Of a DNA stretch of 64,000 nt, positions 19,711 to 55,224 are shown in pieces (the stretch's first letter is position 1; every line of letters begins with the position of its first letter). The notes under the pieces were generated by a model that worked only from the letters and a program-made list of their open reading frames with translations, had not been told where the DNA came from and searched no databases. This DNA comes from Nitrospinales bacterium. GTDB taxonomy: Bacteria > Nitrospinota > Nitrospinia > Nitrospinales > VA-1. A program made the translations under genes and the position numbers. The stretch is taken from assembly GCA_047610985.1 (NCBI GenBank), contig JBLFWU010000009.1, positions 12,607 to 76,606 on the forward strand, in the 5' to 3' direction.

Positions 19711-19842
19711 ACGCCGAATGTATCCTTATAATAGGATGTTTTTCAGCTAAGGTTGACACTTTAGCAAGGTATTGATAGATTGCAAAATTCAACTTTTAAA
19801 AACCAAATCAACCTTGAACCAACCAAAAATCTAAGCTTTCTT

Positions 19843-21201
19843 ATGCGTTTTATTTCGTTAGTATCACTGGTTTTATTCCTACTTGCTCCTGTTGCAGAAG
19901 CTTCTTCTCCTTCCATCGAAGCCAATCTTCATTACCAAAAAGCCATGAAGCTAAGCCAACAAAGGTTGTGGAAGGATGCTATCCCCGAATTTATTAAAGC
20001 CGCTAAACTAGCACCTAAAGACGGCTTACTGCATGCGAATCTTGGTGTCGCATTAAGTCAAACAGGGATGCACAAAGAAGCGCTATTTTCGTTCGACAAA
20101 GCATTAAAACTTGGATATGAATCATCCGGACTTCGTTACAACCGTGGAGTTTCTTTTGCACATCTGAATTTGATAGATGAAGCCGTGACAGAACTGGAAA
20201 AAGCCTTGAACCTTGACCGAAGAATGGTGAAAGCGGAATACGATCTTGGTGTTTTATACAACCGGCAAGGCAACAGGAAAAAGGCTCAGGAGAAAGTAGA
20301 CACTCTGTTTAAACGTAACAACAAGCTGGCAAAAAAATTATTTGACCAATTAATACCCGATTATAAAGTCATCACAGTCGATAATGGAGGAACACTAAAA
20401 GGCCGCGTTTCGCTGACGGGTCGCATCCCAAGAGCCCGTTCTTTTCATCTAGTGCATGCCCCGAACATTGAATTTTGTTCACGGATTTCAGATGGTAAAG
20501 GTCATCGTTTTCTGTACGATTTTACGGTATCGCTAAACCGAGGCTTGAAAGATACGATCATTTCCTTAACAGATATTAAAAAAGGAAAACCGTTTCCACA
20601 AAAAATGCAAACCTTTAATATAGACCGCTGTCGAGCCAATAACTACATCATTGGTATCAAGAACAGCGAAAACATCCTCATCGAAAATACCGATCCGATC
20701 CAGCACGAGATCGCAACCTATGAAGTGAGAAATATCTACTCCGATCAGACTTCAAATCGTCCTGTCATTCCAAAGTCTAGCCAGGTCAGGGCGGCATTCG
20801 TTCGTCACGATGCTAATGAATTCACTATCAAATGCAATCTTCACCCATTCCTGCAAACTCACGGATATCTGGTGGATAACCCCTATTATACCGTAACTGA
20901 CTCAGGTGGAAATTTTTCAATTGAAAACATCCCCCCTGGAACTTACGAGGTCGTGGCCTGGCACACTTATATTCCTCAAAAAAAAGGTACAATAACCATC
21001 ACCTCTAAAGGTGAAACAGAGATTAATTTTGAATTTAATGGTGCGGATGAGAGAAGAAAACTATACCACGATGATATTAAGGGTTATCGATTCAACACTT
21101 GGTATGACAGTAAAGAGAATTTTTATGGAGGCCCAAGAATTGACGATCCCGTGGAAGTATTGCAGGCCTTCTGCGACAAAGACCATATTTGTTCTGAATA
21201 A
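19843..21201 (+). CDS. secreted TPR protein fused to a cupredoxin-like/Ig-like module (paralog 1 of 3)
   Basis: Start set at MRFISLVSLVLFLLAPVAEA (signal peptide); the track ORF starts at 19780. TPR units at aa ~30-170. The C-terminal module shares conserved blocks with the ORFs at 44662 and 47752: GT(L/I)KG, xEFCS, IDRC, DPIQHE, CNLHPFL, NPYYTVTDSGGNFSIENIPPGTYEVVAWH. Confidence 0.65.
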   Translation: MRFISLVSLVLFLLAPVAEASSPSIEANLHYQKAMKLSQQRLWKDAIPEFIKAAKLAPKDGLLHANLGVALSQTGMHKEALFSFDKALKLGYESSGLRYNRGVSFAHLNLIDEAVTELEKALNLDRRMVKAEYDLGVLYNRQGNRKKAQEKVDTLFKRNNKLAKKLFDQLIPDYKVITVDNGGTLKGRVSLTGRIPRARSFHLVHAPNIEFCSRISDGKGHRFLYDFTVSLNRGLKDTIISLTDIKKGKPFPQKMQTFNIDRCRANNYIIGIKNSENILIENTDPIQHEIATYEVRNIYSDQTSNRPVIPKSSQVRAAFVRHDANEFTIKCNLHPFLQTHGYLVDNPYYTVTDSGGNFSIENIPPGTYEVVAWHTYIPQKKGTITITSKGETEINFEFNGADERRKLYHDDIKGYRFNTWYDSKENFYGGPRIDDPVEVLQAFCDKDHICSE

Positions 21202-24781: not shown

Positions 24782-25390
24782 TTAGTTTTGTGGATGGGTA
24801 TTTTCAACTCGCATAGAAAGCTTTTCAGTTGTCAATTCAGCAAGAGAGCCTCCGCCCTTCAAAGATAGAAGCGCGTTTTGAGAAGCTAAACTATCCCAGC
24901 TTCGAGCCCCAGATACATATCCTCTGATCTTCCCATTACCATCGATTAAATAACTGGTGGGAAGACCCATTATATAATATTGCTTCCTTACTTTCTGATC
25001 AGGGTCACGAAGAATATGAAAATTCAATTTATTCTTATCGGCAAATTCAATAATCCGGTCTTCGTTCCACCTGTCAATGGATATGGCTACGATTTCTACA
25101 TCATGTTTTTTGAGGTCGGCGTAAAGATTCTGCATTGATGCCATCTCTTCAATACAGGCCGCACACCAAGTTGCCCAAAAATTAACTAAAACAATTTTAC
25201 CTTTAAAATCAGATAGTTGAGTAACACCCCCTCGAATATTATTCAACTTAAATCCTGGGGCGGATTTAGAAATTTTAGGTGCCACTATACCCATTTCTTC
25301 AAATAGCAATGGGTTAGCCGTAACCTGAATTGGCAACAGCAAGAGGAACAAAGCTAAAGCCAAAACCTTCAAACATGTCTGAGTTTTCAT
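24782..25390 (-). CDS. periplasmic thiol:disulfide oxidoreductase, TlpA/ResA-like
   Basis: 202 aa with a signal peptide. Thioredoxin fold with VNFWATWCAACIEEM (CxxC). Confidence 0.85.
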   Translation of the reverse strand: MKTQTCLKVLALALFLLLLPIQVTANPLLFEEMGIVAPKISKSAPGFKLNNIRGGVTQLSDFKGKIVLVNFWATWCAACIEEMASMQNLYADLKKHDVEIVAISIDRWNEDRIIEFADKNKLNFHILRDPDQKVRKQYYIMGLPTSYLIDGNGKIRGYVSGARSWDSLASQNALLSLKGGGSLAELTTEKLSMRVENTHPQN

Positions 25391-43740: not shown

Positions 43741-44226
43741 TTAAAGCATCTTTTTCAAATACGGTACCAACTGGTCAGCGCTAACACCGGGTGCCCGGGC
43801 ACTGAGAATACCCTCTTTATCAATGATCAGCACTGTTGGCATTTCTCTTTGAAAATAGTTCTGATAAAAAGATTTAACGGGATCCAGCAAATAAGGAAAA
43901 CGGACCTTCTCAGGAAACTTGGAAAGATAATCAGCAACCGCTTCTTTTGAGTCACCATTGGTATTTATTCCAACAATAGCCAACTGCTCCTCATTGAGCT
44001 GATCACGCACCTTGTTAAATTCCATCGCTTGATTCATGCAGGGAACACAGATATGGAACATGCCTATCAATACTACTTTGCCCTTCATATCGGAGAGCGA
44101 TATCTGCTTGCCATCCAAGGTTTTTAATGAAAAATCCGGAGCCTTGTCGCCAGGGCCAGGAGCACCTGCAAATGCAAGTTCAGCCATAAATACCAATAAA
44201 AAGACTAGCGGCAATACTTTTCGCAT
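43741..44226 (-). CDS. periplasmic thioredoxin-like protein (TlpA/redoxin family)
   Basis: Start set at MRKVLPLVFLLVFMAELAFA (signal peptide); the track start is 44271. CxxC motif FHICVPCMNQ in a redoxin fold. Confidence 0.8.
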   Translation of the reverse strand: MRKVLPLVFLLVFMAELAFAGAPGPGDKAPDFSLKTLDGKQISLSDMKGKVVLIGMFHICVPCMNQAMEFNKVRDQLNEEQLAIVGINTNGDSKEAVADYLSKFPEKVRFPYLLDPVKSFYQNYFQREMPTVLIIDKEGILSARAPGVSADQLVPYLKKML

Positions 44227-44661
44227 TTTTAGCACGACAAACTCCAATTGAGGGAATATTTCAAGAAACAAAAAGGTCTAACAAAAGCTGGGTTTCATTT
44301 AATACTATATTTTAGATCAATGGGGAGAAATTTAAAAGTAATATGATTTTTGTATGGATAAACATACGAGCAATATTAACTTGTTAAAATTAAGATTCAA
44401 ATTCGAAAAACTAGCATTAATTTGTAGCCAAACTCATCCTTGACTTGGCCTTGAATTTATAATAAAAAAAGGAGTAACCCTTTTATTCTACAGGGGTTTT
44501 ACAAGAAAGCTCAGGCTGGATTTCTGTCTAGGGCCTTTTTCGGCAAAGACCTCCTAAGCCATTATTTTATGAAGGTTTAGGGTTATTCATGGATTGAAAG
44601 ACAAAATATATATATTTTTCAAATTGCTCCCCCAACGCGCTAACAATTGAGGCTCTTAAGA

Positions 44662-45510
44662 ATGAAAAAAAATCTATGGCTTGCCGCATCAGTATTTTCA
44701 ATATTTTCCATTGCAATAAATGCATGGGCTTATCAGGAAATAGAAGTAAATAACGGGGGAACAATAAAGGGCAAAACCACCTTAATTGGAAAGATGCCCT
44801 TTCCACGAATTTATCACCTTATTCTATTTCCGAATATTGATATGTGTGCCGAGGTAGATACCGATGATGAGATGAACCGAGTTCTTGATGATTTTAAAGT
44901 TTCTGCCGATGGCGGATTCAAAGATGTGGTTATCACTCTGAAACATGTAGAAGCTGGTAAGCCGTTTAATAAAGAGCCTATTATGATTACTTCGGAAAAC
45001 TGTAAATTTCTTCCTGATGTCAATATCATTCGTCAAGATGAGGAGTTTAAGGTCGACAATCTGGATGCAGTTATGCATAACAGTCAGGTCTACCAGAAAG
45101 AAAGAGGAAAGATTCTTTTAAATATCCCGATCCCTGCAGAAGAAGTTTCTAATGGTAAGATACACTTCAAAAAACACTATAAAATAATGCAGATGATCTG
45201 CGGTATGCACGAGTTCATGCAATCATGGGGTTACCGCGTACAAAATCCTTATTACGCGCAAACTCCCATTGACGGAAATTTCATCATAGAGAATATCCCT
45301 CCGGGAGAATATGAAGTGACGGCTTGGCATTATTTAATGAAAAGACAAACCCGAAAAATTATAGTCGCAACCGGGAAAACCATTGATTTGAACTTTGAAT
45401 TCGATGCCGACAAAGTAGTACGCCCTTTCTATGAAACTATAAAATCTGGAAGAATCAAAAAAGATGCTGTTATCCCTGGAACCGCAAAAGGTAAAGAAAT
45501 GGGGCGGTAA
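44662..45510 (+). CDS. secreted cupredoxin-like/Ig-like protein (paralog 2 of 3)
   Basis: Start at MKKNLWLAAS (GAGG 9 nt upstream); the track start is 44647. Signal peptide. Conserved blocks GTIKG, DMCAE, ENCKF, DAVMHNSQVY, ICGMHEFM (C-x2-H-x2-M), NPYYAQTPIDGNFIIENIPPGEYEVTAWH. Confidence 0.7.
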   Translation: MKKNLWLAASVFSIFSIAINAWAYQEIEVNNGGTIKGKTTLIGKMPFPRIYHLILFPNIDMCAEVDTDDEMNRVLDDFKVSADGGFKDVVITLKHVEAGKPFNKEPIMITSENCKFLPDVNIIRQDEEFKVDNLDAVMHNSQVYQKERGKILLNIPIPAEEVSNGKIHFKKHYKIMQMICGMHEFMQSWGYRVQNPYYAQTPIDGNFIIENIPPGEYEVTAWHYLMKRQTRKIIVATGKTIDLNFEFDADKVVRPFYETIKSGRIKKDAVIPGTAKGKEMGR

Positions 45511-47418
45511 TTGACAGCACAACCCAAATCTCGACTCCACTCTGGTTTGTATTTGCTTGTAGCCGTTTTCCTTCTGGCTACCCCGTATACAACTTGGGGT
45601 TTTTCTGCGCCGACCTCTAAAGACACACCAGAGGCCATCACCCTTGACAACAAAAAAGTCTTATTAAAAGACTTGAAGAACCCCCTCCCCTCCAGCCCAG
45701 AGATTGTCAAAGAAGGCGGAGAAATTTACATCAAAAACTGTTTCCTCTGCCACGGCGACCTATTGGATGGAAAAGGAATTTTTGGCGAGAGTTTTTTTCC
45801 CTCGCCAGCCAGCTTTATCCAAAAAGACTCTGTTGTTTCTAAAACTCCTGCTTATGCATTCTGGAGAATAATGAAAGGCGGGAAAGGACTACCAAAAATA
45901 TTCGCACCCTGGAACTCCGCGATGCCTTCATGGGAAGGTGTTTTAACTGAAGTAGAAGTTTGGAAAACGATTCACTACATAAACGAAACAGTAAAAGAGC
46001 GCAGCCAAGCTCCCTCAAAAAACCATGAGCCGTCTTTAAAACGTGGCAAACAAATCTATTTAAAAAAATGTGCCTTCTGCCACGGAGAAAAAGGCAAAGG
46101 CGATGGTCCCTCTGCAGAATACAGCTTGCCACAACCTAGGAACCTGACCAAAGGGCATATCAAGATTCGCTCAACCTCATTTGGCAAGATACCTACTGAC
46201 AAAGACCTGTTTAATGCCATCACTCATGGAATGCGCGGAACCACCATGCCCGGTTGGAAACATCTCTCGGAAAGCGATAGACAAAGTCTGGTTATCTACA
46301 TCAAGTCATTATCGAAAAAATTTGAGAAGTTCCAGAAGCGCGGCAAAAAACATAAGATCGTAAACGTCCCAAAACCTCCTACATTTTCTTTGGAAGGTGT
46401 GAAGCGCGGCAAAAAATCCTTTATGATAAATTGTTCAGGTTGTCATGGAGTTAAAGGCAGGGGCGATGGAGTTACCACCACTCGCATTGTAGACTATTCA
46501 TCGAATGCCATCTGGCCAAGAAACCTCAGTGAACCATGGAACTTTCGAAGAGGCGCAACTCGAGAAGATGTCTTCTTAACATTACGGACCGGGCTTTCAA
46601 CCACCGCAATGCCAAAGTTTTCTCCACGGGTGTTCAAAGACAAGGAAATCTGGGACATCGTAGATTTCATTTGTACTCTTGGCTCACCCAAGAAGCGGCA
46701 AGTAAAACCCGTGATCCTGGCTATGAAAGTCAACGGGCCTTTATCTATCGACCTCAATGCTTCATTTTGGAAAAAAACGCAATCATTTAACATCCCATTA
46801 GGTGGACAGATTTTACAAAAGCCAAAATCCTATTTTCCAACAGTAAAAAACTTGACGATTCGAGCCGCCTACAATGATAAAGAAATCGCTTTCAATATTA
46901 AGTGGGACGACCCTTCTTATGATCCCGCTCTTCTAGAAAGAAATAAGGTTGAGGCATCGCCGACGCCACCATTGCCGGATCATTTAAAGGGGGGAAAAGA
47001 GGAAAAAGCTATTGAACCTGTGATTCCAGAATTCCCAGATGCTTTTGCACTGCAGTTTCCCGTTAATCTGGACACTCAAAAACCCTACTTCCTAAATGGT
47101 GACCCTGAGCACCCAGTAAACTTATGGAAGTGGACTTCATCAGATAATAAAGTTCTTGAATGGAATGCTACCGGATTAAAAAAATGGTCGCTACAAGACG
47201 ACCTGAGTCAGGTAGTTAAGGCTCAAGCAAATTATAAGTTTGGTAGATACTCTTTAGTAGTAAAGCGCAAACGAAGGGTCATCCACGAAAAAATAGACAT
47301 CCAATTCCAAGCGGGAAAACCTATCCCTATTGCTTTCAATATCTGGGATGGTTACCAAGGTGAAACAGATACTAAAAAATCAATTTCAAGTTGGTTTGAA
47401 TTGCAATTCGCTGAGTAA
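45511..47418 (+). CDS. trihaem c-type cytochrome fused to a C-terminal EB_dh/DOMON-like (putative haem-b-binding) domain
   Basis: 635 aa. TTG start directly after the upstream TAA. Signal peptide. CFLCH (45739-45753), CAFCH (46069-46083), CSGCH (46432-46446). The C-terminal ~230 aa carry NLTIRAAYNDKEIAFNIKWDD, FPDAFALQFPV and VNLWKW blocks resembling the ethylbenzene-dehydrogenase gamma-subunit family. Confidence 0.75.
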   Translation: MTAQPKSRLHSGLYLLVAVFLLATPYTTWGFSAPTSKDTPEAITLDNKKVLLKDLKNPLPSSPEIVKEGGEIYIKNCFLCHGDLLDGKGIFGESFFPSPASFIQKDSVVSKTPAYAFWRIMKGGKGLPKIFAPWNSAMPSWEGVLTEVEVWKTIHYINETVKERSQAPSKNHEPSLKRGKQIYLKKCAFCHGEKGKGDGPSAEYSLPQPRNLTKGHIKIRSTSFGKIPTDKDLFNAITHGMRGTTMPGWKHLSESDRQSLVIYIKSLSKKFEKFQKRGKKHKIVNVPKPPTFSLEGVKRGKKSFMINCSGCHGVKGRGDGVTTTRIVDYSSNAIWPRNLSEPWNFRRGATREDVFLTLRTGLSTTAMPKFSPRVFKDKEIWDIVDFICTLGSPKKRQVKPVILAMKVNGPLSIDLNASFWKKTQSFNIPLGGQILQKPKSYFPTVKNLTIRAAYNDKEIAFNIKWDDPSYDPALLERNKVEASPTPPLPDHLKGGKEEKAIEPVIPEFPDAFALQFPVNLDTQKPYFLNGDPEHPVNLWKWTSSDNKVLEWNATGLKKWSLQDDLSQVVKAQANYKFGRYSLVVKRKRRVIHEKIDIQFQAGKPIPIAFNIWDGYQGETDTKKSISSWFELQFAE

Positions 47419-47696
47419 CAGATAATCTCACCCCAGCATCGACTTCTTATTACATCATCGCGCCATCAACTTGATGCCAGCGTAGTATTTTTAGGTTTGT
47501 ATTAAACGGGGCTATCAATACGTTCCATTTAATCCTTCAGCACGTCATCGTGAACGACCGGAGGGAGTGCGGCGAACCAGACGCAATCGTACTCCACTTT
47601 ATTTTTGGTAGAGGCAGACCCTAATTTGTTCTGAGATTGTCCGAACTCTATCCCTGAGGAGGGTAAATTTTAGGGATGGGGTCACCCGCATCAGGC

Positions 47697-47737
47697 AAAA
47701 AAAAAGCAGCACCGGAACCGAAGTTCCGGTGCTGCTT
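47697..47737 (-). terminator. rho-independent terminator of the cupredoxin-like gene at 47752-48558
   Basis: On the minus strand: GCAGCACCGGAAC-TTCG-GTTCCGGTGCTGC (13-bp perfect stem, UUCG loop) followed by T9. Confidence 0.9.
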
Positions 47738-47751
47738 GATTGAAACGCTTT

Positions 47752-48558
47752 TTACTTAGCTGCCAGGGTGAAGTCAGCTTTAGCTGCACCAGCAGCCACT
47801 GTTACTTCCTGGGTTGATTCACCTACATAAGGCTGCCATGCGGTAACTTTATATTTACCAGCAGGAACGCCGTCAATTGTGAAAGCACCATCAGCTCCCG
47901 TAATTGCGTAGTAAGGGTTCCAAACAATGCGTGCATCGGCTTCCATGAAGTTATGCTGATCGCACTGCAAAAAGAAATGCTTATCTTTGCTAGACTTTAG
48001 ACGACCGATATTTTTGGACACTTCCGCAACATCACCCTCATTTGGAAGAGGCTTGTTGAACAATGTTTTACGACTTGCACCAACAACGGAATACCCATGT
48101 GGGTTATGCAAAATATTTGCATCGTTATTCTTTACGGTAAGAACTCCACCCGATTTCTTTTCAGCCTTGGTAGGCTTGCGAATAACCAACATTTTCTGAA
48201 CAATGTCGCATTTCGTGAAATCGTAAGCAGCTTTACCAGCATCACCCCAAGGCTTGCCACCGTCAATCTTTTCGATAAATACGACTGCGTCTTTCAGCTT
48301 GCCGCCAGCAGCTGACACTTTTACACGAGGGCGGATTCCATCTTTAGCATCCGGATGCGTGGTGCAGAACTCAACGTTCTTACCTTTTGATAAATCTTCC
48401 ATGATCGGAGCCATCGCAGCACCCTTTAACATGACTGTTCCAGTAATGCTACCCGCACCTGCTGTGCCTTCTGCATAACCTTTTTTCTTGGCGAAACTCG
48501 TAGAAGCTAGTGCCAATGAAAAGGCAACAACCATTACACTAAATACAATCTTTCTCAT
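47752..48558 (-). CDS. secreted cupredoxin-like/Ig-like protein (paralog 3 of 3)
   Basis: 268 aa with a signal peptide (LALASTSFA). AGGAGG RBS. Blocks SITGT, VEFCTT, FTKCD, ANILHNPHGY, LQCDQHNFM (C-x2-H-x2-M), NPYYAITGADGAFTIDGVPAGKYKVTAWQ. It has its own terminator. Confidence 0.75.
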   Translation of the reverse strand: MRKIVFSVMVVAFSLALASTSFAKKKGYAEGTAGAGSITGTVMLKGAAMAPIMEDLSKGKNVEFCTTHPDAKDGIRPRVKVSAAGGKLKDAVVFIEKIDGGKPWGDAGKAAYDFTKCDIVQKMLVIRKPTKAEKKSGGVLTVKNNDANILHNPHGYSVVGASRKTLFNKPLPNEGDVAEVSKNIGRLKSSKDKHFFLQCDQHNFMEADARIVWNPYYAITGADGAFTIDGVPAGKYKVTAWQPYVGESTQEVTVAAGAAKADFTLAAK

Positions 48559-48691
48559 TCTTTTCTTCCTCCTTTAGGAAATCAAAAAATATACACTACA
48601 CACATTTGAAGTGATTGAACACAAATTCGATGAAAAACCGCGCACTACAGAATTGCGGGATTCTATCATAAAAGGAAGGTACTTATAACGT

Positions 48692-48730
48692 AAAAAAGGG
48701 GCCCCATCAAGGGGCCCCTTTCACTTTTTT
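48692..48730. terminator. bidirectional rho-independent terminator downstream of the giant multicopper oxidase gene
   Basis: AAAGGGGCCCC-atcaa-GGGGCCCCTTT hairpin flanked by A6 upstream and T6 downstream, so it has a U-tract on both strands. Confidence 0.85.
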
Positions 48731-48754
48731 GCAATAAATGCCAAAAATCGATGC

Positions 48755-51700
48755 TTATCTCATCGAGAGCCGGTCATCCTCAGCTTTTGAGGCAGATTTC
48801 TCTTCCTCAGAAGGCTGAGATGCAGTTTTCACACCCTTTGGTGTAACCTTGCCAAGCGGCAGGATAGAACGGTCACCTGAAGATAGAACCTTAAAGTAAC
48901 CCCACTGACCCGCTTGTTGATAAGGTGTACGAGCGTTAAACCACAAGTACGTACCAGGGTTCTTGTACGTGCCGCCAGCATTGAAGAAGGCTTGAATGTA
49001 CTCGCCTGCTCCAAATTGCTCGGTGTCAATCATATCAGAGCCTTCCTGATCCATATGACGCCTCCACTGATGGCCATCCAAATTGAACATCTGGTTTTGT
49101 TCGTTATGAGCACCAAAAATATTGATCATAACCCTATCTCCTGCATGGGCTTTCAGAGTCGGTGTTGCAGGATCTTGATCTGCAGCAACACAAGCTGTGA
49201 ACATGTTACCAAGTTCACAACCCTCGTCTTCCCGATAGAGCCAAGGCTCCAGGCGATAGTTAACCCCTGTCAGGCCCGCTACGTTTTGCAGGTAAGGCAT
49301 GAAAGATGTACCAATGATATTGTCTTCATCCTGGAAATACAGTGCAAAATCCCTGTAGTTCTCAATGTTAGCGTTTTCAGGATAAGACTTGTCGATGATA
49401 ACGTCCGCTTTCCAAGAATTACCGAGAGAAATATCTTTCCCGGTTTCAGGATCGCGATACACCGAACCACGTGGGCCGATGATGATACCACCGAACATAC
49501 CATCGCGTAAGTTGGTCGTCAGGTTACCAAAGTCCCAAATCAATGAACCATTGATTTTGAAACCTGGATCTGCGTAGAACTCGTAGTTCTTCGATTTACC
49601 CGGAGCCACCGTCTGGTCGCCTGGGTTATTCCCAACGTTGATACCCTGAGAAGTCAGAGGATCAAACGCAATGTTGTTAAGATGCATTGAAGCATTGCCC
49701 GCTTTCAAGCGATTGGTCAATTTGATTTTGATACAATCGCCAATGTTGGCGTGCAAGGTCAACGGATGCGGCATATGCCCATCTGCTGCGGCTTGCTTGG
49801 CTTCACCTTCGAGAGCATAGATTTTGCCCGCTGCATTAGCGAGTAATAACTTACGCTCAAAGTCGACCTCGATTTCACCTTCGGTATTGGCGTTGAAGTT
49901 CAACTCTTTATCAATCGCTACAACACTGAAGCTTTTAACCGGTGAGCCTTTCGGACAAAGAACTTTCTTAACTTTTTTCTTAAATTCTTCATTACCCGGA
50001 AGCACTTTCAGGTCTTTTTGCAATTCATCGTGTACACGGATGATGCCCCACTCTCCTTCTGACAACTTTGAAGTTCTGCCGTCGTAGTAGAGATAGTCAC
50101 CTGCCATGCCCTGATAACCACCAGCAGTGGTTGCCAAGTCATAACGTTCCGCAATACCAATATGAATCGTATTGGTAACACGTGAATCTTTGTCGTAACG
50201 CTCAGGGCGGTAGCCATGACCGGATACAACAAAGGTGTGTGTTTCATTTTGCATACCATGAAGGAGACGGAAAACAATATTGTCTCCTACATAAGCACGT
50301 AACATTGGTGTTGCAGGCTCTCCGTGCACTTTACTATCGAACAACCTGGACGCGTCTTTATTATTCAAAAGACGTGAAGCCAAGGAAGCAGCACGGAAGT
50401 TGAACCCACCGCCGGTTGTATGCGTTCCGCCATTGAGATGCGGGAAAGCAACTTCCAGCATATCCGAAGGCATCTGGAAAGAAATCGACTGACCGGCAGC
50501 AATCGCGTTTTCACGTGTCAGCCCCGCTGGATTTCCTGCTGTAACCAGCTGTGCCGTATGAGGAACAGTGTCATGTAACTGCGCAACAAGTTCGCGGAAG
50601 CTACCATTTCGGCTATATGCGAAAGGTTCGGTTCCATGAATATCGGCAACTGGACCACTGCGGATCTCCTCACCGGTTTGCGGGTCATGATAAGTAGAAC
50701 CCCAAGGCTCAACAATAGTAGATCCGATTCCGCCATGCGGCCAGGTGGTCGCACCAAACGCATGATCGTGCCAGAAAACCAATCCAACATCTGCATCTAC
50801 CCACCATCGGTAACGCACATACTCGGTGGTTATAATCTGGTTAGCTGCATGAGCATGAGTCATACCCTCACTAAAGGTGATGGTGTACTTACCATCTTTA
50901 GCTTCACCTTTGTTTGGGTCAGGTGTGATGTTAGTGATCCAGCGCGCGTCTTTACCGTTAGGAACTTCGACACCAACAATGATATCAGCTCCAACATGGT
51001 AAGTCGGCGAACCTTTAGCCATTTGAAGCTCGACCTTCGTGTCGCCTGGCTTCGTCGCCTTCAACAACTTGGCGTTCATCGGCATCGGCATACTGACATG
51101 ATGACCGTCTTTCATCTTCTTAGTGAACTGCGTGTAAGACCTCATGGACTGGTCATATGAGAAACCAGTGATAACTCCATCTGAAGCCTGATTGTCGAAC
51201 TGGAAGAAATGCGGATGGATATTCACCTTAGACATTTGGAAGTTGGTGAAATCATCATCATCCCACTCACTGGTCAACAACACATCAACACAGTCATAAA
51301 CGTTGGCACGAATGACCAGAGGAATAGCCCTTTTAGGATCAGCTTTAACCTCAGCCATCTCTTCATCGATCACATAGATCAAGCCATACTTATCCACTAC
51401 AGGTGGCGTCTTGCCCACCGCCGGTGAAAGCTCAATCGGAGTGTTGATAAAATGTAGATTGTATTGTTTACGTCCTGCTCCTGGAGGACAAAGGCTCCAT
51501 CGCCCCTGCTCACCTGGTTTTGCAGGTGCACTGCTTTCAACATTGATTCCAGATCGACCACTACCAGATTCGGAACCTGTAATGATGTCTGCATCCGGTC
51601 TCATATGGAAAGGCTCCAACCAAGGAGCTCCACCATGGTGTCGAGCAAATGGAACACGCTTACCAAAATGCGGATTCAAATGCGGCCATGCAAGTTTACC

Positions 51701-53704
51701 GTGTTGATCAAACATGATCGGATGTCTCTTGCCTGGATGTGGAGATTTATACTTAGGCCATTCAATTATAGATTCTCGTTCAGAGAGTACCTGATTGCCT
51801 TTCCAGTCGTAATCCCATACAGAGCCATCATAGGCCTTAATCTGTTTGATTGGATCATCATAATGACCAGGCTGTCCCTTTGGAGGAAGCATGTACTTAA
51901 CCCAGTCTTTGATGTTAACGGTTGGATCCTCTTTCGACCAATCGCTTTTACCTTTATCAACAATATGAAACTTCTTGCCAAACCAGTCCATGGTTCTACC
52001 AACCAGTTTGTCTGAAGTTTGTCCATGAGGAATGCGTCCCACACGATCAGGAAGCTCCTTCAATGGACGCATAACATCGGTACTACCTGTTGGATAATTA
52101 CCGTCCTGTAGAACGTTATAAACTCTCCAATATCCCCACATGCCTGCAACATAGTGATGCGCTACATGACAATGGAAAAGAAAGTCACCTGCTAAACGCT
52201 GACAAAGACCAGACCCACATTCAGTCTCGAGATCCACAACTTCAGATGGACCAATAACTTTAACGTCAACACGGTCGGTCGTAGTACGAACAACAGGGTA
52301 CTTGACGGGACCATCATAAGCCGCACTGATGAGGTTGGCGATTTGCACTTCCCGTTTCGGGGAACGCGTCCAACGAATGGTTCCACCATGTGGATGATGT
52401 GAATGAAACACTTCACCACCACCATGAATCAAACGGAATTTTGCAGGATCACCCAGATAAGAACGGGGAATCGTGGTCGGTGCATCTCCGAAAGTATAAG
52501 AACTATATGCCAGTGACTCATCTTCAAAATGAAACTTCTTTTCCTGAATTGCCAGATTGTTGATACCAAATGGTTCAGAACGAAAGTTCAATGCTCTTGC
52601 AGAAGGACGATAAGCGTCTGTCTGCGGATCGCGCTGAGGAATCATTTCACCATGACGATTCAAGGGACGAAAAGATTCGTCACCGACTTCGTGATAAATC
52701 AAACCAAATTCACGAAAATCTCTTTCATCATCATTAACGATCATGGCCATCCAGCCGCTTTCCAGCGGGCCACCGGTCCATGGATCGACATAACGAGAAC
52801 CTTTAGGCTCTACAACCATCGCGCCGATCAAACCGAGAGAAGAAGGATCACGACCTGCATGGTTTTGAATCATGTGTCCGCCTTCTTGCTCATCAATAGG
52901 AATGTACCACTCGTATTCCTGCGTTTCACCAGCAGGAACTATTGCACCAGGTGTAGCAGCCGTATCAGGCTGACCTGTAGAGCTGATGATCATTGCAGAA
53001 CCGTTTACCTGAAAGCCTGCATCTTCATCTTCTAATTGGTTCGTGAATTTAATACGTAAGCAGTCGCCTTGATTCGCACGAATCATAAACGGTTGAATAG
53101 CATCTCCCTGAAGTCCGTTAGAAACGGCACCAGGGTCCAACGCGTCTTCACGAGCTGCTGCATTCTTTTCTTCTTCAGCTCGAACTTTATCAATGTCCTT
53201 ATCCAGAACATACATATAGCCCGGATAGTAATCGCCCCATTGGTTCAGGGTGATTTCGACGTTAATAGCTGAGACTTCGTAGGTTTTTGTAGAGGCGTTG
53301 CTCGGACAATGTGCACCTCTGTATACCTTGGCCGCAGCTTCTGTCGGTCCAAGCAAATAACTTTGACCTAATTGATGTCCCGCCCAGGAATCGTGGAATC
53401 CGCCGCCTGAAGATGCGGGACTCGCGTGTTCCTTAAGCTTTGATTTTAACTGATCCATAACCTTCATAAAGGTTTGGTCCAGTTTTTCTTGGCTACCTTC
53501 CAGCCCACTCATAACATCTTCATGCTCGAGTTGCTGATCAAGTTTTTTCAGCCAATTGGGTCTGTCAACTGCTGCGTTGCCAGAGTCATGACCGTCATGC
53601 GAATGGTCGGTCGAAATTGCACTAGCGGGAACAGAAAGTCCCAGGGTCAAAAAAACGACCGCAAGCGCATACAAGCTTTTCCACCCTTTTTTGACACGAA
53701 TCAT
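48755..53704 (-). CDS. giant secreted multicopper oxidase, six cupredoxin-like domains
   Basis: 1649 aa, AGGAGG RBS, Sec signal peptide (…SVPASA), His-rich mature N-terminus STDHSHDGHD. Type-1/trinuclear signature FHCHVAHHYVAGM (aa 510-522, nt 52139-52177) preceded by FHSHHPHG (aa 433-440). NIHPHF (aa 828-833) and FWHDHA (aa 977-982) lie downstream. Internal repeats include IRANQGDCLRIKFTN / LHANIGDCIKIKLTN and LHGMQNETHTFVVSGHGYR / FGAHNEQNQMFNLDGHQWR. Confidence 0.85.
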   Translation of the reverse strand: MIRVKKGWKSLYALAVVFLTLGLSVPASAISTDHSHDGHDSGNAAVDRPNWLKKLDQQLEHEDVMSGLEGSQEKLDQTFMKVMDQLKSKLKEHASPASSGGGFHDSWAGHQLGQSYLLGPTEAAAKVYRGAHCPSNASTKTYEVSAINVEITLNQWGDYYPGYMYVLDKDIDKVRAEEEKNAAAREDALDPGAVSNGLQGDAIQPFMIRANQGDCLRIKFTNQLEDEDAGFQVNGSAMIISSTGQPDTAATPGAIVPAGETQEYEWYIPIDEQEGGHMIQNHAGRDPSSLGLIGAMVVEPKGSRYVDPWTGGPLESGWMAMIVNDDERDFREFGLIYHEVGDESFRPLNRHGEMIPQRDPQTDAYRPSARALNFRSEPFGINNLAIQEKKFHFEDESLAYSSYTFGDAPTTIPRSYLGDPAKFRLIHGGGEVFHSHHPHGGTIRWTRSPKREVQIANLISAAYDGPVKYPVVRTTTDRVDVKVIGPSEVVDLETECGSGLCQRLAGDFLFHCHVAHHYVAGMWGYWRVYNVLQDGNYPTGSTDVMRPLKELPDRVGRIPHGQTSDKLVGRTMDWFGKKFHIVDKGKSDWSKEDPTVNIKDWVKYMLPPKGQPGHYDDPIKQIKAYDGSVWDYDWKGNQVLSERESIIEWPKYKSPHPGKRHPIMFDQHGKLAWPHLNPHFGKRVPFARHHGGAPWLEPFHMRPDADIITGSESGSGRSGINVESSAPAKPGEQGRWSLCPPGAGRKQYNLHFINTPIELSPAVGKTPPVVDKYGLIYVIDEEMAEVKADPKRAIPLVIRANVYDCVDVLLTSEWDDDDFTNFQMSKVNIHPHFFQFDNQASDGVITGFSYDQSMRSYTQFTKKMKDGHHVSMPMPMNAKLLKATKPGDTKVELQMAKGSPTYHVGADIIVGVEVPNGKDARWITNITPDPNKGEAKDGKYTITFSEGMTHAHAANQIITTEYVRYRWWVDADVGLVFWHDHAFGATTWPHGGIGSTIVEPWGSTYHDPQTGEEIRSGPVADIHGTEPFAYSRNGSFRELVAQLHDTVPHTAQLVTAGNPAGLTRENAIAAGQSISFQMPSDMLEVAFPHLNGGTHTTGGGFNFRAASLASRLLNNKDASRLFDSKVHGEPATPMLRAYVGDNIVFRLLHGMQNETHTFVVSGHGYRPERYDKDSRVTNTIHIGIAERYDLATTAGGYQGMAGDYLYYDGRTSKLSEGEWGIIRVHDELQKDLKVLPGNEEFKKKVKKVLCPKGSPVKSFSVVAIDKELNFNANTEGEIEVDFERKLLLANAAGKIYALEGEAKQAAADGHMPHPLTLHANIGDCIKIKLTNRLKAGNASMHLNNIAFDPLTSQGINVGNNPGDQTVAPGKSKNYEFYADPGFKINGSLIWDFGNLTTNLRDGMFGGIIIGPRGSVYRDPETGKDISLGNSWKADVIIDKSYPENANIENYRDFALYFQDEDNIIGTSFMPYLQNVAGLTGVNYRLEPWLYREDEGCELGNMFTACVAADQDPATPTLKAHAGDRVMINIFGAHNEQNQMFNLDGHQWRRHMDQEGSDMIDTEQFGAGEYIQAFFNAGGTYKNPGTYLWFNARTPYQQAGQWGYFKVLSSGDRSILPLGKVTPKGVKTASQPSEEEKSASKAEDDRLSMR

Positions 53705-53919
53705 TATCTACCTCCTAGTAGAGCGTCTAAAAATGGACAATAAAAAACAGTAATACGTAATATATTTCTTCTAATTATTGTGTGGCCCCATCCATCCTTT
53801 TTGGCGGGCTACAATCTATTAACCTATTACAATCAAAGGCTTATGTATAACATTAAAAAAAAACGAAACAATCCCTACAGATAAAGACCCTATATTTCGG
53901 GTGGGCAACTTTAACAAAT

Positions 53920-55224
53920 TTAATTTTCCCTTACAAGCCCCAAGTTGATTTTTTTATCGTCCCTCAAAACCAGTAGAAAAACAGAGCCACCTTTAGTCAC
54001 CCCGCTCAAAATACTCTCGAATTCATGTTGATTTTTCACCGTTTCTCCATTGACCGCCAAAATCTGGTCACCAACTTGTACGCCTTTTATTTCGGCATAA
54101 CTTCCTAGCTTTACAGTAGCTACTTTTGGGTTATTTTCAGCAAGAGGATCATCTGTTACCGAAAAGCCCAAAGATGAGGGGTCGCTGGGAGTCAAAGAGG
54201 CCAAAAGGCTGGTTTTCTTTTTCTTCGATTCAAGTTTCACAGGAACTGTCTTACCTTTGCCGTTTCTCAGAATATCCAGGTTAATGGTTTGTCCAGGAGT
54301 GATTGTGCCAATAATGCGGATCAGGGTATTGGGTGAGTCAACAACTGCGCCTCCAATTTTCAAAATAATATCCCCCACTTTCAATCCCGCTTGATGAGCC
54401 GGATCGCCTTCAAAAACAGAAGTGACGACAACGCCTTTCTTACTACCTTTTATTTCAGTCATCTCTTCGGGTAGCGGATCAATACCCACACCCAGCCAAC
54501 CGCGGTGCACTTCTCCGTGCTCCACCAATTGAGCAACAATATGCGAAACCATATTTGATGGGATGGAAAAACCAATGCTTTGCGCATAATTGATGATAGC
54601 GGTATTGATACCAATAACTTCACCTTTGATATTCAGTAACGGACCACCGCTATTCCCAGGGTTGATCGAAGCATCGGTTTGGATGAAATCTTCATATCGA
54701 GAGAGGTTGACGTTCTCTCTTTTTAATCCACTGACAATTCCAAAGGTTGTCGTATCGTTCAGCCCATAAGGATTGCCCACCGCCACTACCAATTGCCCTA
54801 TTCTGACCTTACTGGAATCTGCAAACTTTACCGCCGTCAGCGGCTGCGCGGATTCGACTTGCACCACAGCGAGATCAGTATCTTCATCAGCACCTAAAAC
54901 TTCACCGACAATCTTACTACCATCTTTAAATGTCACCAGTATCTTCAGGACATTACGCACTACATGGCTGTTAGTAACGATCAATCCTTTTTTTGCATTG
55001 AAGATAACACCCGCTCCTGCATTTGCAGGTCGACCTTTCCTAGGTAACCCCTGCCCCACAGCGCCTTTTGCAATATAGGGAGAAAGACTGACCACTGCCG
55101 GCCGAACTTTATCCGCCAACGCCACAAGCTCCTGCTCAACCTGCTCCAAAATTCCCGCACTGCTGGATTGCGCCAGTAGCAGGAAAATTATAATTGCGCA
55201 GACTTTTATAAGCGGATTGTTCAT
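53920..55224 (-). CDS. htrA: periplasmic serine endoprotease HtrA/DegP/DegQ family, two PDZ domains
   Basis: 434 aa with a signal peptide. Catalytic triad context TNSHVV, DLAVV, GNSGGPLL, followed by two PDZ segments. Confidence 0.92.
   Translation of the reverse strand: MNNPLIKVCAIIIFLLLAQSSSAGILEQVEQELVALADKVRPAVVSLSPYIAKGAVGQGLPRKGRPANAGAGVIFNAKKGLIVTNSHVVRNVLKILVTFKDGSKIVGEVLGADEDTDLAVVQVESAQPLTAVKFADSSKVRIGQLVVAVGNPYGLNDTTTFGIVSGLKRENVNLSRYEDFIQTDASINPGNSGGPLLNIKGEVIGINTAIINYAQSIGFSIPSNMVSHIVAQLVEHGEVHRGWLGVGIDPLPEEMTEIKGSKKGVVVTSVFEGDPAHQAGLKVGDIILKIGGAVVDSPNTLIRIIGTITPGQTINLDILRNGKGKTVPVKLESKKKKTSLLASLTPSDPSSLGFSVTDDPLAENNPKVATVKLGSYAEIKGVQVGDQILAVNGETVKNQHEFESILSGVTKGGSVFLLVLRDDKKINLGLVREN

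Follow-up and report, generated by a model that had tools for sequence, protein, structure and literature searches.

A giant MnxG-related multicopper oxidase and its cupredoxin neighbors in a periplasmic redox island of a Nitrospinaceae bacterium

The Redox Island and Its Genes

The window analyzed here, i.e., the whole stretch of 64,000 nucleotides, comes from an uncultured Nitrospinaceae bacterium. Between positions 43741 and 55224 it carries an island of six genes centered on a giant multicopper oxidase (MCO). Two of the other genes, called parA and parB here, encode cupredoxin-like paralogs, and the remaining three encode a trihaem cytochrome c with an EB_dh domain, a TlpA-like protein and HtrA. 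The layout of the island is as follows.

43741–44226, (−) strand: TlpA-like thiol:disulfide oxidoreductase with a Redoxin/AhpC-TSA Pfam match and a CVPC motif
44662–45510, (+) strand: parA, predicted amicyanin-like type-1 cupredoxin plus transthyretin-like (CarboxypepD_reg) domain, clade I
45511–47418, (+) strand: trihaem cytochrome c plus EB_dh (NxrC-like) protein, ortholog of Nitrospina gracilis alt_NxrC4
47704–47737: hairpin terminator between the convergent cytochrome and parB genes
47752–48558, (−) strand: parB, predicted amicyanin-like type-1 cupredoxin plus transthyretin-like domain, clade II
48692–48721, (−) strand: terminator-like hairpin directly 3′ of the MCO stop codon
48755–53704, (−) strand: MCO, 1649 residues, predicted six-domain MnxG-like multicopper oxidase
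53920–55224, (−) strand: putative HtrA/DegP-family periplasmic serine protease with Trypsin_2 and two PDZ domains (Pfam)

A sequence-only reading of this DNA had placed the six genes at these positions and assigned them these domains. The open reading frames (ORFs) agree in every case and the Pfam matches for all but the cupredoxin part of the two paralogs, and the component identities it gave are right. The parA and cytochrome genes are on the (+) strand and the other four on the (−) strand, so that the cytochrome and parB genes converge and the TlpA and parA genes diverge. The parA ORF opens at a TTG at 44647, and the TlpA-like ORF can be extended to a TTG at 44271. All six proteins appear to have a hydrophobic, signal-like N-terminus, as read by eye from the translations.

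Inspection of the sequence confirms the remark, made in the earlier reading, that the TAA stop of parA abuts the TTG start of the cytochrome gene with a 0-nt gap. The two genes are thus predicted to be translationally coupled. Also borne out are the ribosome-binding site of parB, AAAGGAGG, and its own terminator at 47737–47704, a strong hairpin with a 15-bp stem, including 9 GC pairs, followed by a T-run. The hairpin 3′ of the MCO gene, AAAGGGGCCCC-TTGAT-GGGGCCCCTTT plus a T-run, resembles an intrinsic terminator. Judging from this arrangement, parB probably has its own promoter or is reached by attenuated read-through.

The Giant Multicopper Oxidase

The Pfam Cu-oxidase_3 model matches the MCO in three stretches (67.2 bits vs. 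a cutoff of 21, E 2e-18). Among solved structures, its best sequence match, and the sole strong one, is MnxG (9bxa_A; phmmer E 2e-98, six stretches). Identity to MnxG is about 20%. Other Protein Data Bank (PDB) matches, to two-domain laccases, are marginal, with E values of about 7e-4. An AlphaFold (AF2) model of residues 125–1260 was used for global fold matching only, not for site geometry, its mean pLDDT being 67.6. In a Foldseek search this model matches 9bxa_A first (E 1.5e-45, 1150 columns, TMq 0.48) and ceruloplasmin next (6e-15). The MCO is therefore predicted to be MnxG-related rather than CueO/laccase-like. On this point the sequence-only reading is supported.

Four ligand motifs, H434xxH437xH439, H511-C512-H513-x3-H517-x4-M522, H830xH832 and H979xH981, are invariant in all 81 aligned homologues. 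A second HCH motif is absent from the MCO, which argues that the enzyme has one type-1 (T1) copper site and one trinuclear copper cluster, the complement we predict. H517 aligns to position 340 of the deposited Mnx “H340A” structure; thus, the T1 site is placed as in MnxG. The invariant Cys pairs C133/C215, C739/C805 and C1250/C1324 mark a threefold two-domain repeat. A self-BLAST for internal repeats gave no matches, and the repeat is seen only via the Cys pairs and the MnxG alignment.

The six-domain architecture, with its T1 site in domain 2, is nearest to that of the solved MnxG. The Mnx complex of Bacillus sp. PL-12 (MnxG plus MnxE3F3; PDB 9bxa) likewise has six cupredoxin domains, and in both enzymes the second domain carries a T1 site with the sequence HCHxxxHxxxxM; MnxG is the best match in sequence and in fold. 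The island MCO, however, is longer, with 1649 residues vs. 1227 and large inserts at about residues 556–728 and 850–960. The accessory genes differ as well, i.e., 27–30 kDa cupredoxin-transthyretin proteins in the island vs. MnxE/F in Bacillus. The N-terminus of the island MCO has the features of a Sec rather than a Tat signal, and export to the periplasm is predicted, whereas the Mnx complex is located on the spore surface.

The mature N-terminus of the MCO is His-rich (STDHSHDGHD, residues ~31–40, window 53590–53615), and a region predicted to be helical lies between this segment and domain 1. H36 of this segment is kept in 50 of the 81 homologues. The tail may serve in metal capture.

The ceruloplasmin match, second best by fold, raises the alternative that the MCO oxidizes Cu(I) or Fe(II) in the manner of CueO or ceruloplasmin and that the par proteins, TlpA and HtrA form a general envelope copper-stress set. 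TlpA-type proteins help periplasmic copper-site assembly, and one stand-alone par-like gene, described below, is found two genes from a YHS metal-binding gene. Nevertheless, we consider this alternative very improbable. The MCO has no CueO/laccase family match, and its only PDB matches besides MnxG are the marginal ones to two-domain laccases. No conserved Met-rich segment is seen in the MCO consensus, and no copper efflux or sensor genes are found in the window. Further, the very high abundance of the protein in situ (PMC9477243) would be unusual for a homeostasis enzyme.

The par Cupredoxins

The par proteins are hard to recognize from databases. parA and parB are 28–29% identical to one another, and neither has a cupredoxin match among the hidden Markov models of Pfam or NCBIfam. 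Only the C-terminal domain is detected, as CarboxypepD_reg in parB (35.5 bits vs. a cutoff of 32.3) and as fn3_3/CarboxypepD_reg in parA, and database entries for the family are named simply “carboxypeptidase regulatory-like domain-containing”. The cupredoxin assignment of the sequence-only reading is upheld despite the silence of Pfam, on two grounds, the invariant ligands and the predicted fold.

The T1 ligands, H144/C185/H188/M191 in parA and H151/C199/H202/M205 in parB, occupy invariant columns across 110–120 homologues. The invariant positions comprise one His, the Cys-x2-His-x2-Met loop, a second Cys pair (C65/C117) and one Asp. The ligand spacing is that of amicyanin. The AF2 model of parB has a pLDDT of 93.6 and a pTM of 0.86, and in Foldseek its N-terminal domain matches amicyanin (best) and the NirK cupredoxin domain (prob 1.0, TMt 0.58), as well as a Nitrosopumilus cupredoxin, azurin loop variants and pseudoazurin. 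Over the matches to amicyanin, the NirK domain, azurin and pseudoazurin, prob is 1.0, E runs from 3e-4 to 1e-2, and TMt reaches 0.64. The C-terminal domain matches the β-sandwiches of carboxypeptidase D and rhamnogalacturonan lyase. The par proteins are thus predicted, from sequence and model, to consist of a type-1 amicyanin-like cupredoxin and a transthyretin-like domain. Amicyanin, the electron acceptor of methylamine dehydrogenase, shares the cupredoxin fold and the short C-x2-H-x2-M ligand loop with them. At about 2.5 times the size of amicyanin, however, the par proteins have the C-terminal transthyretin-like domain and the extra Cys pair, and identity is 15–18%.

A neighbor-joining tree of 48 par sequences (200 bootstrap replicates) resolves two deep clades with 98.5% bootstrap support. 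Clade I includes the parA of Nitrospinaceae along with the copies directly after the MCO gene in Manganitrophaceae/Nitrospiria and Nitrospira. Clade II includes the parB of Nitrospinaceae, a third Nitrospira copy, and par3, an additional cupredoxin of some Nitrospinaceae. Clade-I proteins share a conserved C-terminal tail (...RPxYExxxxxR...), which in parA spans residues ~250–282 (window 45409–45507) and is also present in the Nitrospirota clade-I copies; clade II, including parB, is without it.

A third paralog is encoded in the window at 19780–21201 on the (+) strand. This 473-residue protein has N-terminal TPR repeats followed by the cupredoxin/transthyretin-like module, and is 34.5% identical to parA (E 1e-44) and 25% identical to parB. 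Its T1 His/Cys/His are retained, and the axial Met is replaced by Leu (“CNLHPFL”). A representative search also found stand-alone par-like genes at two loci with no MCO nearby, one of them being the gene close to a YHS-domain gene. We also asked whether the cupredoxin-like proteins of the Kuenenia NXR cluster (NXR, nitrite oxidoreductase) belong to the par family. A profile search of 1.84 billion proteins, a check of cluster names and a look at two gene contexts yielded no members other than unnamed ones and ones from Nitrospira, along with unrelated contexts.

Distribution and Synteny

Homologues of the MCO at 97–98% identity are in marine metagenomes and a Nitrospinota metagenome-assembled genome (MAG). 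Identity is 80% for Ca. Nitrohelix, 78% for N. gracilis 3/211 and 76% for Ca. Nitronauta, and falls to 53–59% for Ca. Manganitrophus and many Nitrospirota. At least 592 relatives turned up when one genome per GTDB species was scanned. The best 78 loci of these belong to Nitrospinota or Nitrospirota without exception, and include Nitrospira lenta, a clade-B comammox MAG and Manganitrophaceae with two copies.

A par gene lies no more than 2.5 kb downstream, on the same strand, at 39 of the 43 evaluable Nitrospirota MCO genes and at 20 of the 33 in Nitrospinota. MCO genes with no such neighbor are mostly one of a tandem MCO pair, on short contigs, or in three class-level outliers. Since the MCO and par genes are kept together across two phyla, their grouping goes beyond chance. 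Moreover, both par clades accompany the MCO in both phyla, which argues for an ancestral module of the MCO and two cupredoxins. For TlpA and HtrA, grouping with the island is not demonstrably beyond chance; the links of the cytochrome, HtrA and TlpA to the MCO are confined to Nitrospinaceae.

The Nitrospinaceae layout, where arrowheads give direction and parentheses mark optional genes, is CysH< HtrA> MCO1> parB> (MCO2>) (trihaem cyt3>) <cytEB <parA (<par3) TlpA>. In N. gracilis 3/211, NITGRv1_620035–620040 and neighbors have the same order as the island, CysH, HtrA, MCO, parB, alt_NxrC4, parA, TlpA, and the cluster is its ortholog, the MCO being 78% and alt_NxrC4 48% identical; the optional MCO2 is absent there. 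N. gracilis has two genes that the window lacks, a 424-residue trihaem cytochrome in the gap between parB and alt_NxrC4, and the par3 cupredoxin (233 residues). No cyt3 or par3 remnants are found in the intergenic regions of the window.

Several variations on this layout are seen. Many Nitrospinaceae have two or three tandem giant MCO genes in the arrangement MCO1-parB-MCO2 (loci L005, L006, L008, L012, L023, L045 and L047). MCO2 is followed directly by a trihaem cytochrome c of about 420 residues, cyt3, in L006, L008, L023 and L045, and by a second parB in L005 and L012. In the lineage of the window, MCO2, cyt3 and par3 have been lost or were never present. Three relatives with 86% identity have an insertion of 6–8 kb between parB and the cytochrome-parA pair; thus, the two halves of the island are separable.

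At six Nitrospira loci, a HEAT-repeat protein (~462 residues) and a 232-residue protein of unknown family are encoded between the par copies. The two were identified by Pfam in the loci checked, and elsewhere ORFs of similar size occupy the same position. After the par copies and these two genes, the downstream block continues with an O-methyltransferase gene in two loci and a DUF420 gene in one. The CxxCH motif is absent from all downstream-block proteins in the Nitrospira loci read. Single Nitrospira loci have an FGE-sulfatase-like gene or a DUF255 thioredoxin-like gene nearby.

The Trihaem Cytochrome, TlpA and HtrA

The protein encoded after parA has three CxxCH motifs, which are conserved along with distal Met residues, and Pfam finds three c-type cytochrome stretches (Cytochrome_CBB3, E 2e-33) and the EB_dh domain (76.1 bits vs. 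a cutoff of 33.3). Residues 177–395 are similar to a dihaem protein, chain B of the Kuenenia HAO-like complex 6h5l (E 1e-38). The EB_dh domain, which aligns to EbdC and to Kuenenia NxrC, is common to the NxrC/EbdC γ subunits of type II enzymes in the DMSO-reductase family and to the alternative NxrCs of nitrite oxidizers and anammox bacteria. The haem-b axial ligands of EbdC are M108 and K201; of these positions, the Lys is kept in the island protein, as K623.

The fusion to c-type haem domains is like that of alt_NxrC2–4, and the protein is 48% identical to one of these, the 642-residue NITGRv1_620040 of N. gracilis (alt_nxrC4). It is unlike NxrC in three respects, as follows. No NxrA or NxrB gene adjoins it, and no molybdoenzyme is encoded in the window; the N. 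gracilis ortholog is likewise found outside any nxrABC operon. The TIGR03477 model (DMSO reductase type II haem b subunit) gives 107 bits and does not reach its cutoff of 169.85. Finally, the haem-b Met is replaced by Asn.

The TlpA-like protein matches Pfam AhpC-TSA (72 bits) and Redoxin (69 bits), with E values of 1e-19 to 1e-20, and its NCBIfam ResA/TlpA matches are below the equivalog cutoffs. The gene occupies the same place beside parA or par3 in Nitrospinaceae loci. HtrA has a trypsin-like protease domain and two PDZ domains, and scores 376.8 bits against TIGR02037, for which the cutoff is 416.2. The htrA gene is upstream of the MCO gene in Nitrospinaceae only. A second TlpA/redoxin-like ORF of the window, at 24782–25390 on the (−) strand, is 27% identical to the TlpA of the island (E 8e-13).

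Published Work on the Cluster

The sequence-only reading offered the island as a candidate undescribed system. That claim is not supported: a 2013 paper already annotated the ortholog of the island in N. gracilis and discussed it (PMC3578206), and the MCO protein has since been quantified in the ocean (PMC9477243). The island is a real and coherent ortholog of an already described cluster, and is not new as a discovery. Its value lies in the functional question and in a sharpened hypothesis about partners.

Lücker et al. (2013) gave the MCO of N. gracilis, NITGRv1_620037, the annotation “possible manganese oxidase”, compared it with MnxG of Bacillus SG-1, and proposed a Mn(III)-based defense against reactive oxygen species (ROS), a proposal resting on the lack of superoxide dismutase (SOD) and catalase in N. 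gracilis (PMC3578206). Their figure shows the MCO with genes associated with NXR, among them those for an alternative NxrC and for two cupredoxin-like proteins, and the trihaem/EB_dh protein is annotated alt_NxrC4, with alt_NxrC2–4 described as fused to c-type haem domains (PMC3578206). In the Pacific metaproteomes of Saunders et al. (2022), the “MnxG” of Nitrospinae ranks second in abundance among the oxidoreductases of this group, after NXR, with a peak in the oxycline; they leave its function unconfirmed (PMC9477243). The protein covaries with NxrA in the north, in low-oxygen waters (r = 0.64), and with the catalase KatG in the south, in oxygenated waters (r = 0.64) (PMC9477243). Later metagenomic papers still call the function of the MCO unverified.

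In the Nitrospirota, Yu et al. (2022) describe the Manganitrophaceae as Mn(II)-oxidizing chemolithoautotrophs with two novel MCOs in every genome, and point out that Mn lithotrophy via these MCOs would require a periplasmic electron carrier (PMC9040806). In the Manganitrophaceae, both the MCO and the CarboxypepD_reg family form core gene clusters with multiple copies, and in strain Mn1 under conditions of Mn oxidation one MCO copy ranks at the 95th percentile of expression and swings 60-fold from one sample to the next (Table S6, PMC9040806). In Ca. Manganitrophus noduliformans Mn1, an MCO copy goes from ~35 to ~2200 units between replicate Mn-oxidizing cultures, and a σ54 activator two genes away moves in step, from 39 to 920 (Ga0306812_1011759, _1011761; PMC9040806). 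This joint movement suggests inducible regulation.

The 2013 proposal leads to an alternative in which the MCO is a stand-alone periplasmic Mn(II) oxidase that makes Mn(III)/MnO2 against superoxide and peroxide. The closest characterized relative of the MCO is indeed MnxG, N. gracilis is without SOD and catalase (PMC3578206), and in oxygenated waters the protein follows catalase (PMC9477243). We regard this alternative as possible, though doubtful. The substrate range of the MCO cannot be read from homology, as later metagenomic authors also state, and identity to MnxG is low. The alternative further takes the par proteins to be structural or copper-delivery accessories and the trihaem/EB_dh protein to be a mere neighbor serving NXR electron transfer, roles that we hold equally doubtful. 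The annotation as alt_NxrC4, and the fact that outside the Nitrospinaceae the cytochrome is unlinked to the MCO, agree with such a neighbor. The par proteins, however, keep complete, invariant T1 ligands of the redox type, not a chaperone-type site, and they are unrelated to MnxE/F.

The covariation with NxrA brings up another alternative, a nitrite-linked chain that runs from periplasmic NXR through alt_NxrC4 (haem b/c) and the par proteins to the MCO, the MCO acting as a non-pumping, possibly high-affinity, sink or scavenger for O2. Its components can be lined up: the EB_dh domain shares homology with NxrC and EbdC; parA is predicted to be coupled to the cytochrome gene and belongs to the MCO-adjacent cupredoxin clade; in other Nitrospinaceae an MCO copy is followed directly by one more trihaem cytochrome; and the NXR-associated gene set of Lücker et al. 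holds cupredoxin-like proteins and the MCO (PMC3578206). The co-occurrence with NxrA at low oxygen and the oxycline peak point the same way (PMC9477243). The chain is nonetheless unlikely. NXR is absent from the window, in Nitrospirota the MCO has no cytochrome nearby, the EB_dh domain lacks the haem-b Met ligand, and the path would yield no proton-motive force. In addition, Mn(II)-oxidizing Manganitrophaceae retain the MCO and par.

A Proposed Oxidase with Dedicated Cupredoxin Partners

The reading to which we give somewhat better than even chances is that the MCO belongs to the MnxG type of oxidase, reduces O2 in the periplasm and has cupredoxins as dedicated partners, and that the pair is an ancient module common to Nitrospinota and Nitrospirota. 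We infer a par–MCO interaction, a direction of electron flow and a primary reductant, as follows. Single electrons would enter the MCO at the one T1 copper of domain 2 (C512/H517/M522), and O2 would be reduced to water at the trinuclear cluster formed with the following domain. The two old par clades most likely exchange electrons with the MCO or dock onto it. On grounds of homology to MnxG, Mn(II) is the leading candidate for the substrate. In Nitrospinaceae, parA is predicted to be coupled to the trihaem/EB_dh protein, soluble or anchored, which could join the copper module to haem-based periplasmic carriers. TlpA and HtrA plausibly help in the maturation and quality control of these Sec-exported metalloproteins.

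Several points weigh against this reading. At the level of the genes, the hairpin between the MCO and parB makes separate transcription units possible, and co-transcription is not required. At the level of the proteins, the structure model of the MCO is of moderate confidence (pLDDT 67.6). As for membership in the MnxG equivalog, the MCO scores 109 bits with NCBIfam NF041487, which has a cutoff of 3100. parA and parB are without a significant match to any PDB chain, the 9bxa chains included, and so do not pass for MnxE/F-like subunits. The two-domain par architecture is widespread, with 453 representatives at E < 1e-30, some of which are giant proteins of many repeated CarboxypepD_reg domains, and the family includes stand-alone genes in unrelated contexts. 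Periplasmic reduction of O2 conserves no energy, and a respiratory role is not obvious. Finally, our literature search found no biochemical data for any Nitrospinota or Nitrospirota MCO homologue or cluster member.

Further points concern the cytochrome. The trihaem/EB_dh gene is within 10 kb of the MCO in 12 of 22 Nitrospinota loci and in 0 of 28 Nitrospirota loci, and the conserved block just downstream of the MCO has no c-type cytochrome in the 17 Nitrospirota loci read. The haem-b Met position is Asn529 (“FLNG”, window 47095–47100), invariant in 10 orthologues. Within Nitrospinaceae, the unrelated CysH, HD and SIR2 flanks are as syntenic as the island genes; it follows that, for HtrA, TlpA and the cytochrome, synteny within the family is weak functional evidence. 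What does tie the cytochrome to the MCO, indirectly, is its coupled partner parA, whose clade sits directly after the MCO in Nitrospirota.

To summarize in terms of the sequence-only reading, which proposed that electrons pass from a metal or other reductant through haem c and T1 copper to O2 at the MCO, the interpretation is partly supported. The synteny it looked for in relatives holds for the MCO and the cupredoxins across two phyla but, for the cytochrome, stops at about half of the Nitrospinota loci. The haem c step is accordingly weakly supported, the parA clade speaking for it and the Nitrospirota loci and equally syntenic flanks speaking against it. The reading also compared the island with the rusticyanin/cytochrome c chains of Fe(II) oxidizers and with MofA/MofC, which resemble it in combining, in the periplasm, an oxidase with a c-type cytochrome and a blue-copper carrier. 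The likeness found is that of the general folds of cupredoxins and cytochromes. The window encodes neither an outer-membrane cytochrome nor a porin.

A further reading would make the MCO not a dead-end O2 reducer but the entry or exit of a copper-based periplasmic electron wire, a proposal we put forward as a long shot. In one direction, Mn(II) or another metal would be oxidized and the electrons passed to the par proteins and, in Nitrospinaceae, on to the trihaem alt_NxrC4 instead of to O2. In the other, the MCO would be a cupredoxin:O2 oxidoreductase draining NXR-derived electrons at very low O2. The same low probability covers the two directions jointly. Were the first true, it would supply the energy-conserving route that Yu et al. 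(2022) called necessary for MCO-based Mn lithotrophy in Manganitrophaceae. Were either true, the conserved module of the MCO and cupredoxins of two clades would amount to a respiratory component of a new type, common to nitrite-, ammonia- and Mn-oxidizing Nitrospirota and Nitrospinota.

Nitrospinae carry out most of the nitrite oxidation in the ocean. Comammox and canonical Nitrospira have the MCO family in their core, as does the manganese chemolithoautotroph Ca. Manganitrophus. The two cupredoxin clades, the trihaem NxrC-like protein coupled to parA, and the invariant copper ligands provide testable partners for Mn oxidation, O2 scavenging or ROS defense, and an answer on the role of the MCO would matter for the marine cycles of Mn and N.

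The Rest of the Window

As the sequence-only reading had stated, neither a haem-copper oxidase nor a bc1 complex nor a molybdoenzyme is encoded in the rest of the 64-kb window. Scans with Rfam and for tRNAs gave no matches in the window. The island is flanked at 30.5–43 kb by a polysaccharide-biosynthesis/ABC cluster and at 55–61 kb by CysH, HD, SIR2, Lcl_C and SelO genes, both unrelated to it, and the remaining genes of the window are housekeeping genes.

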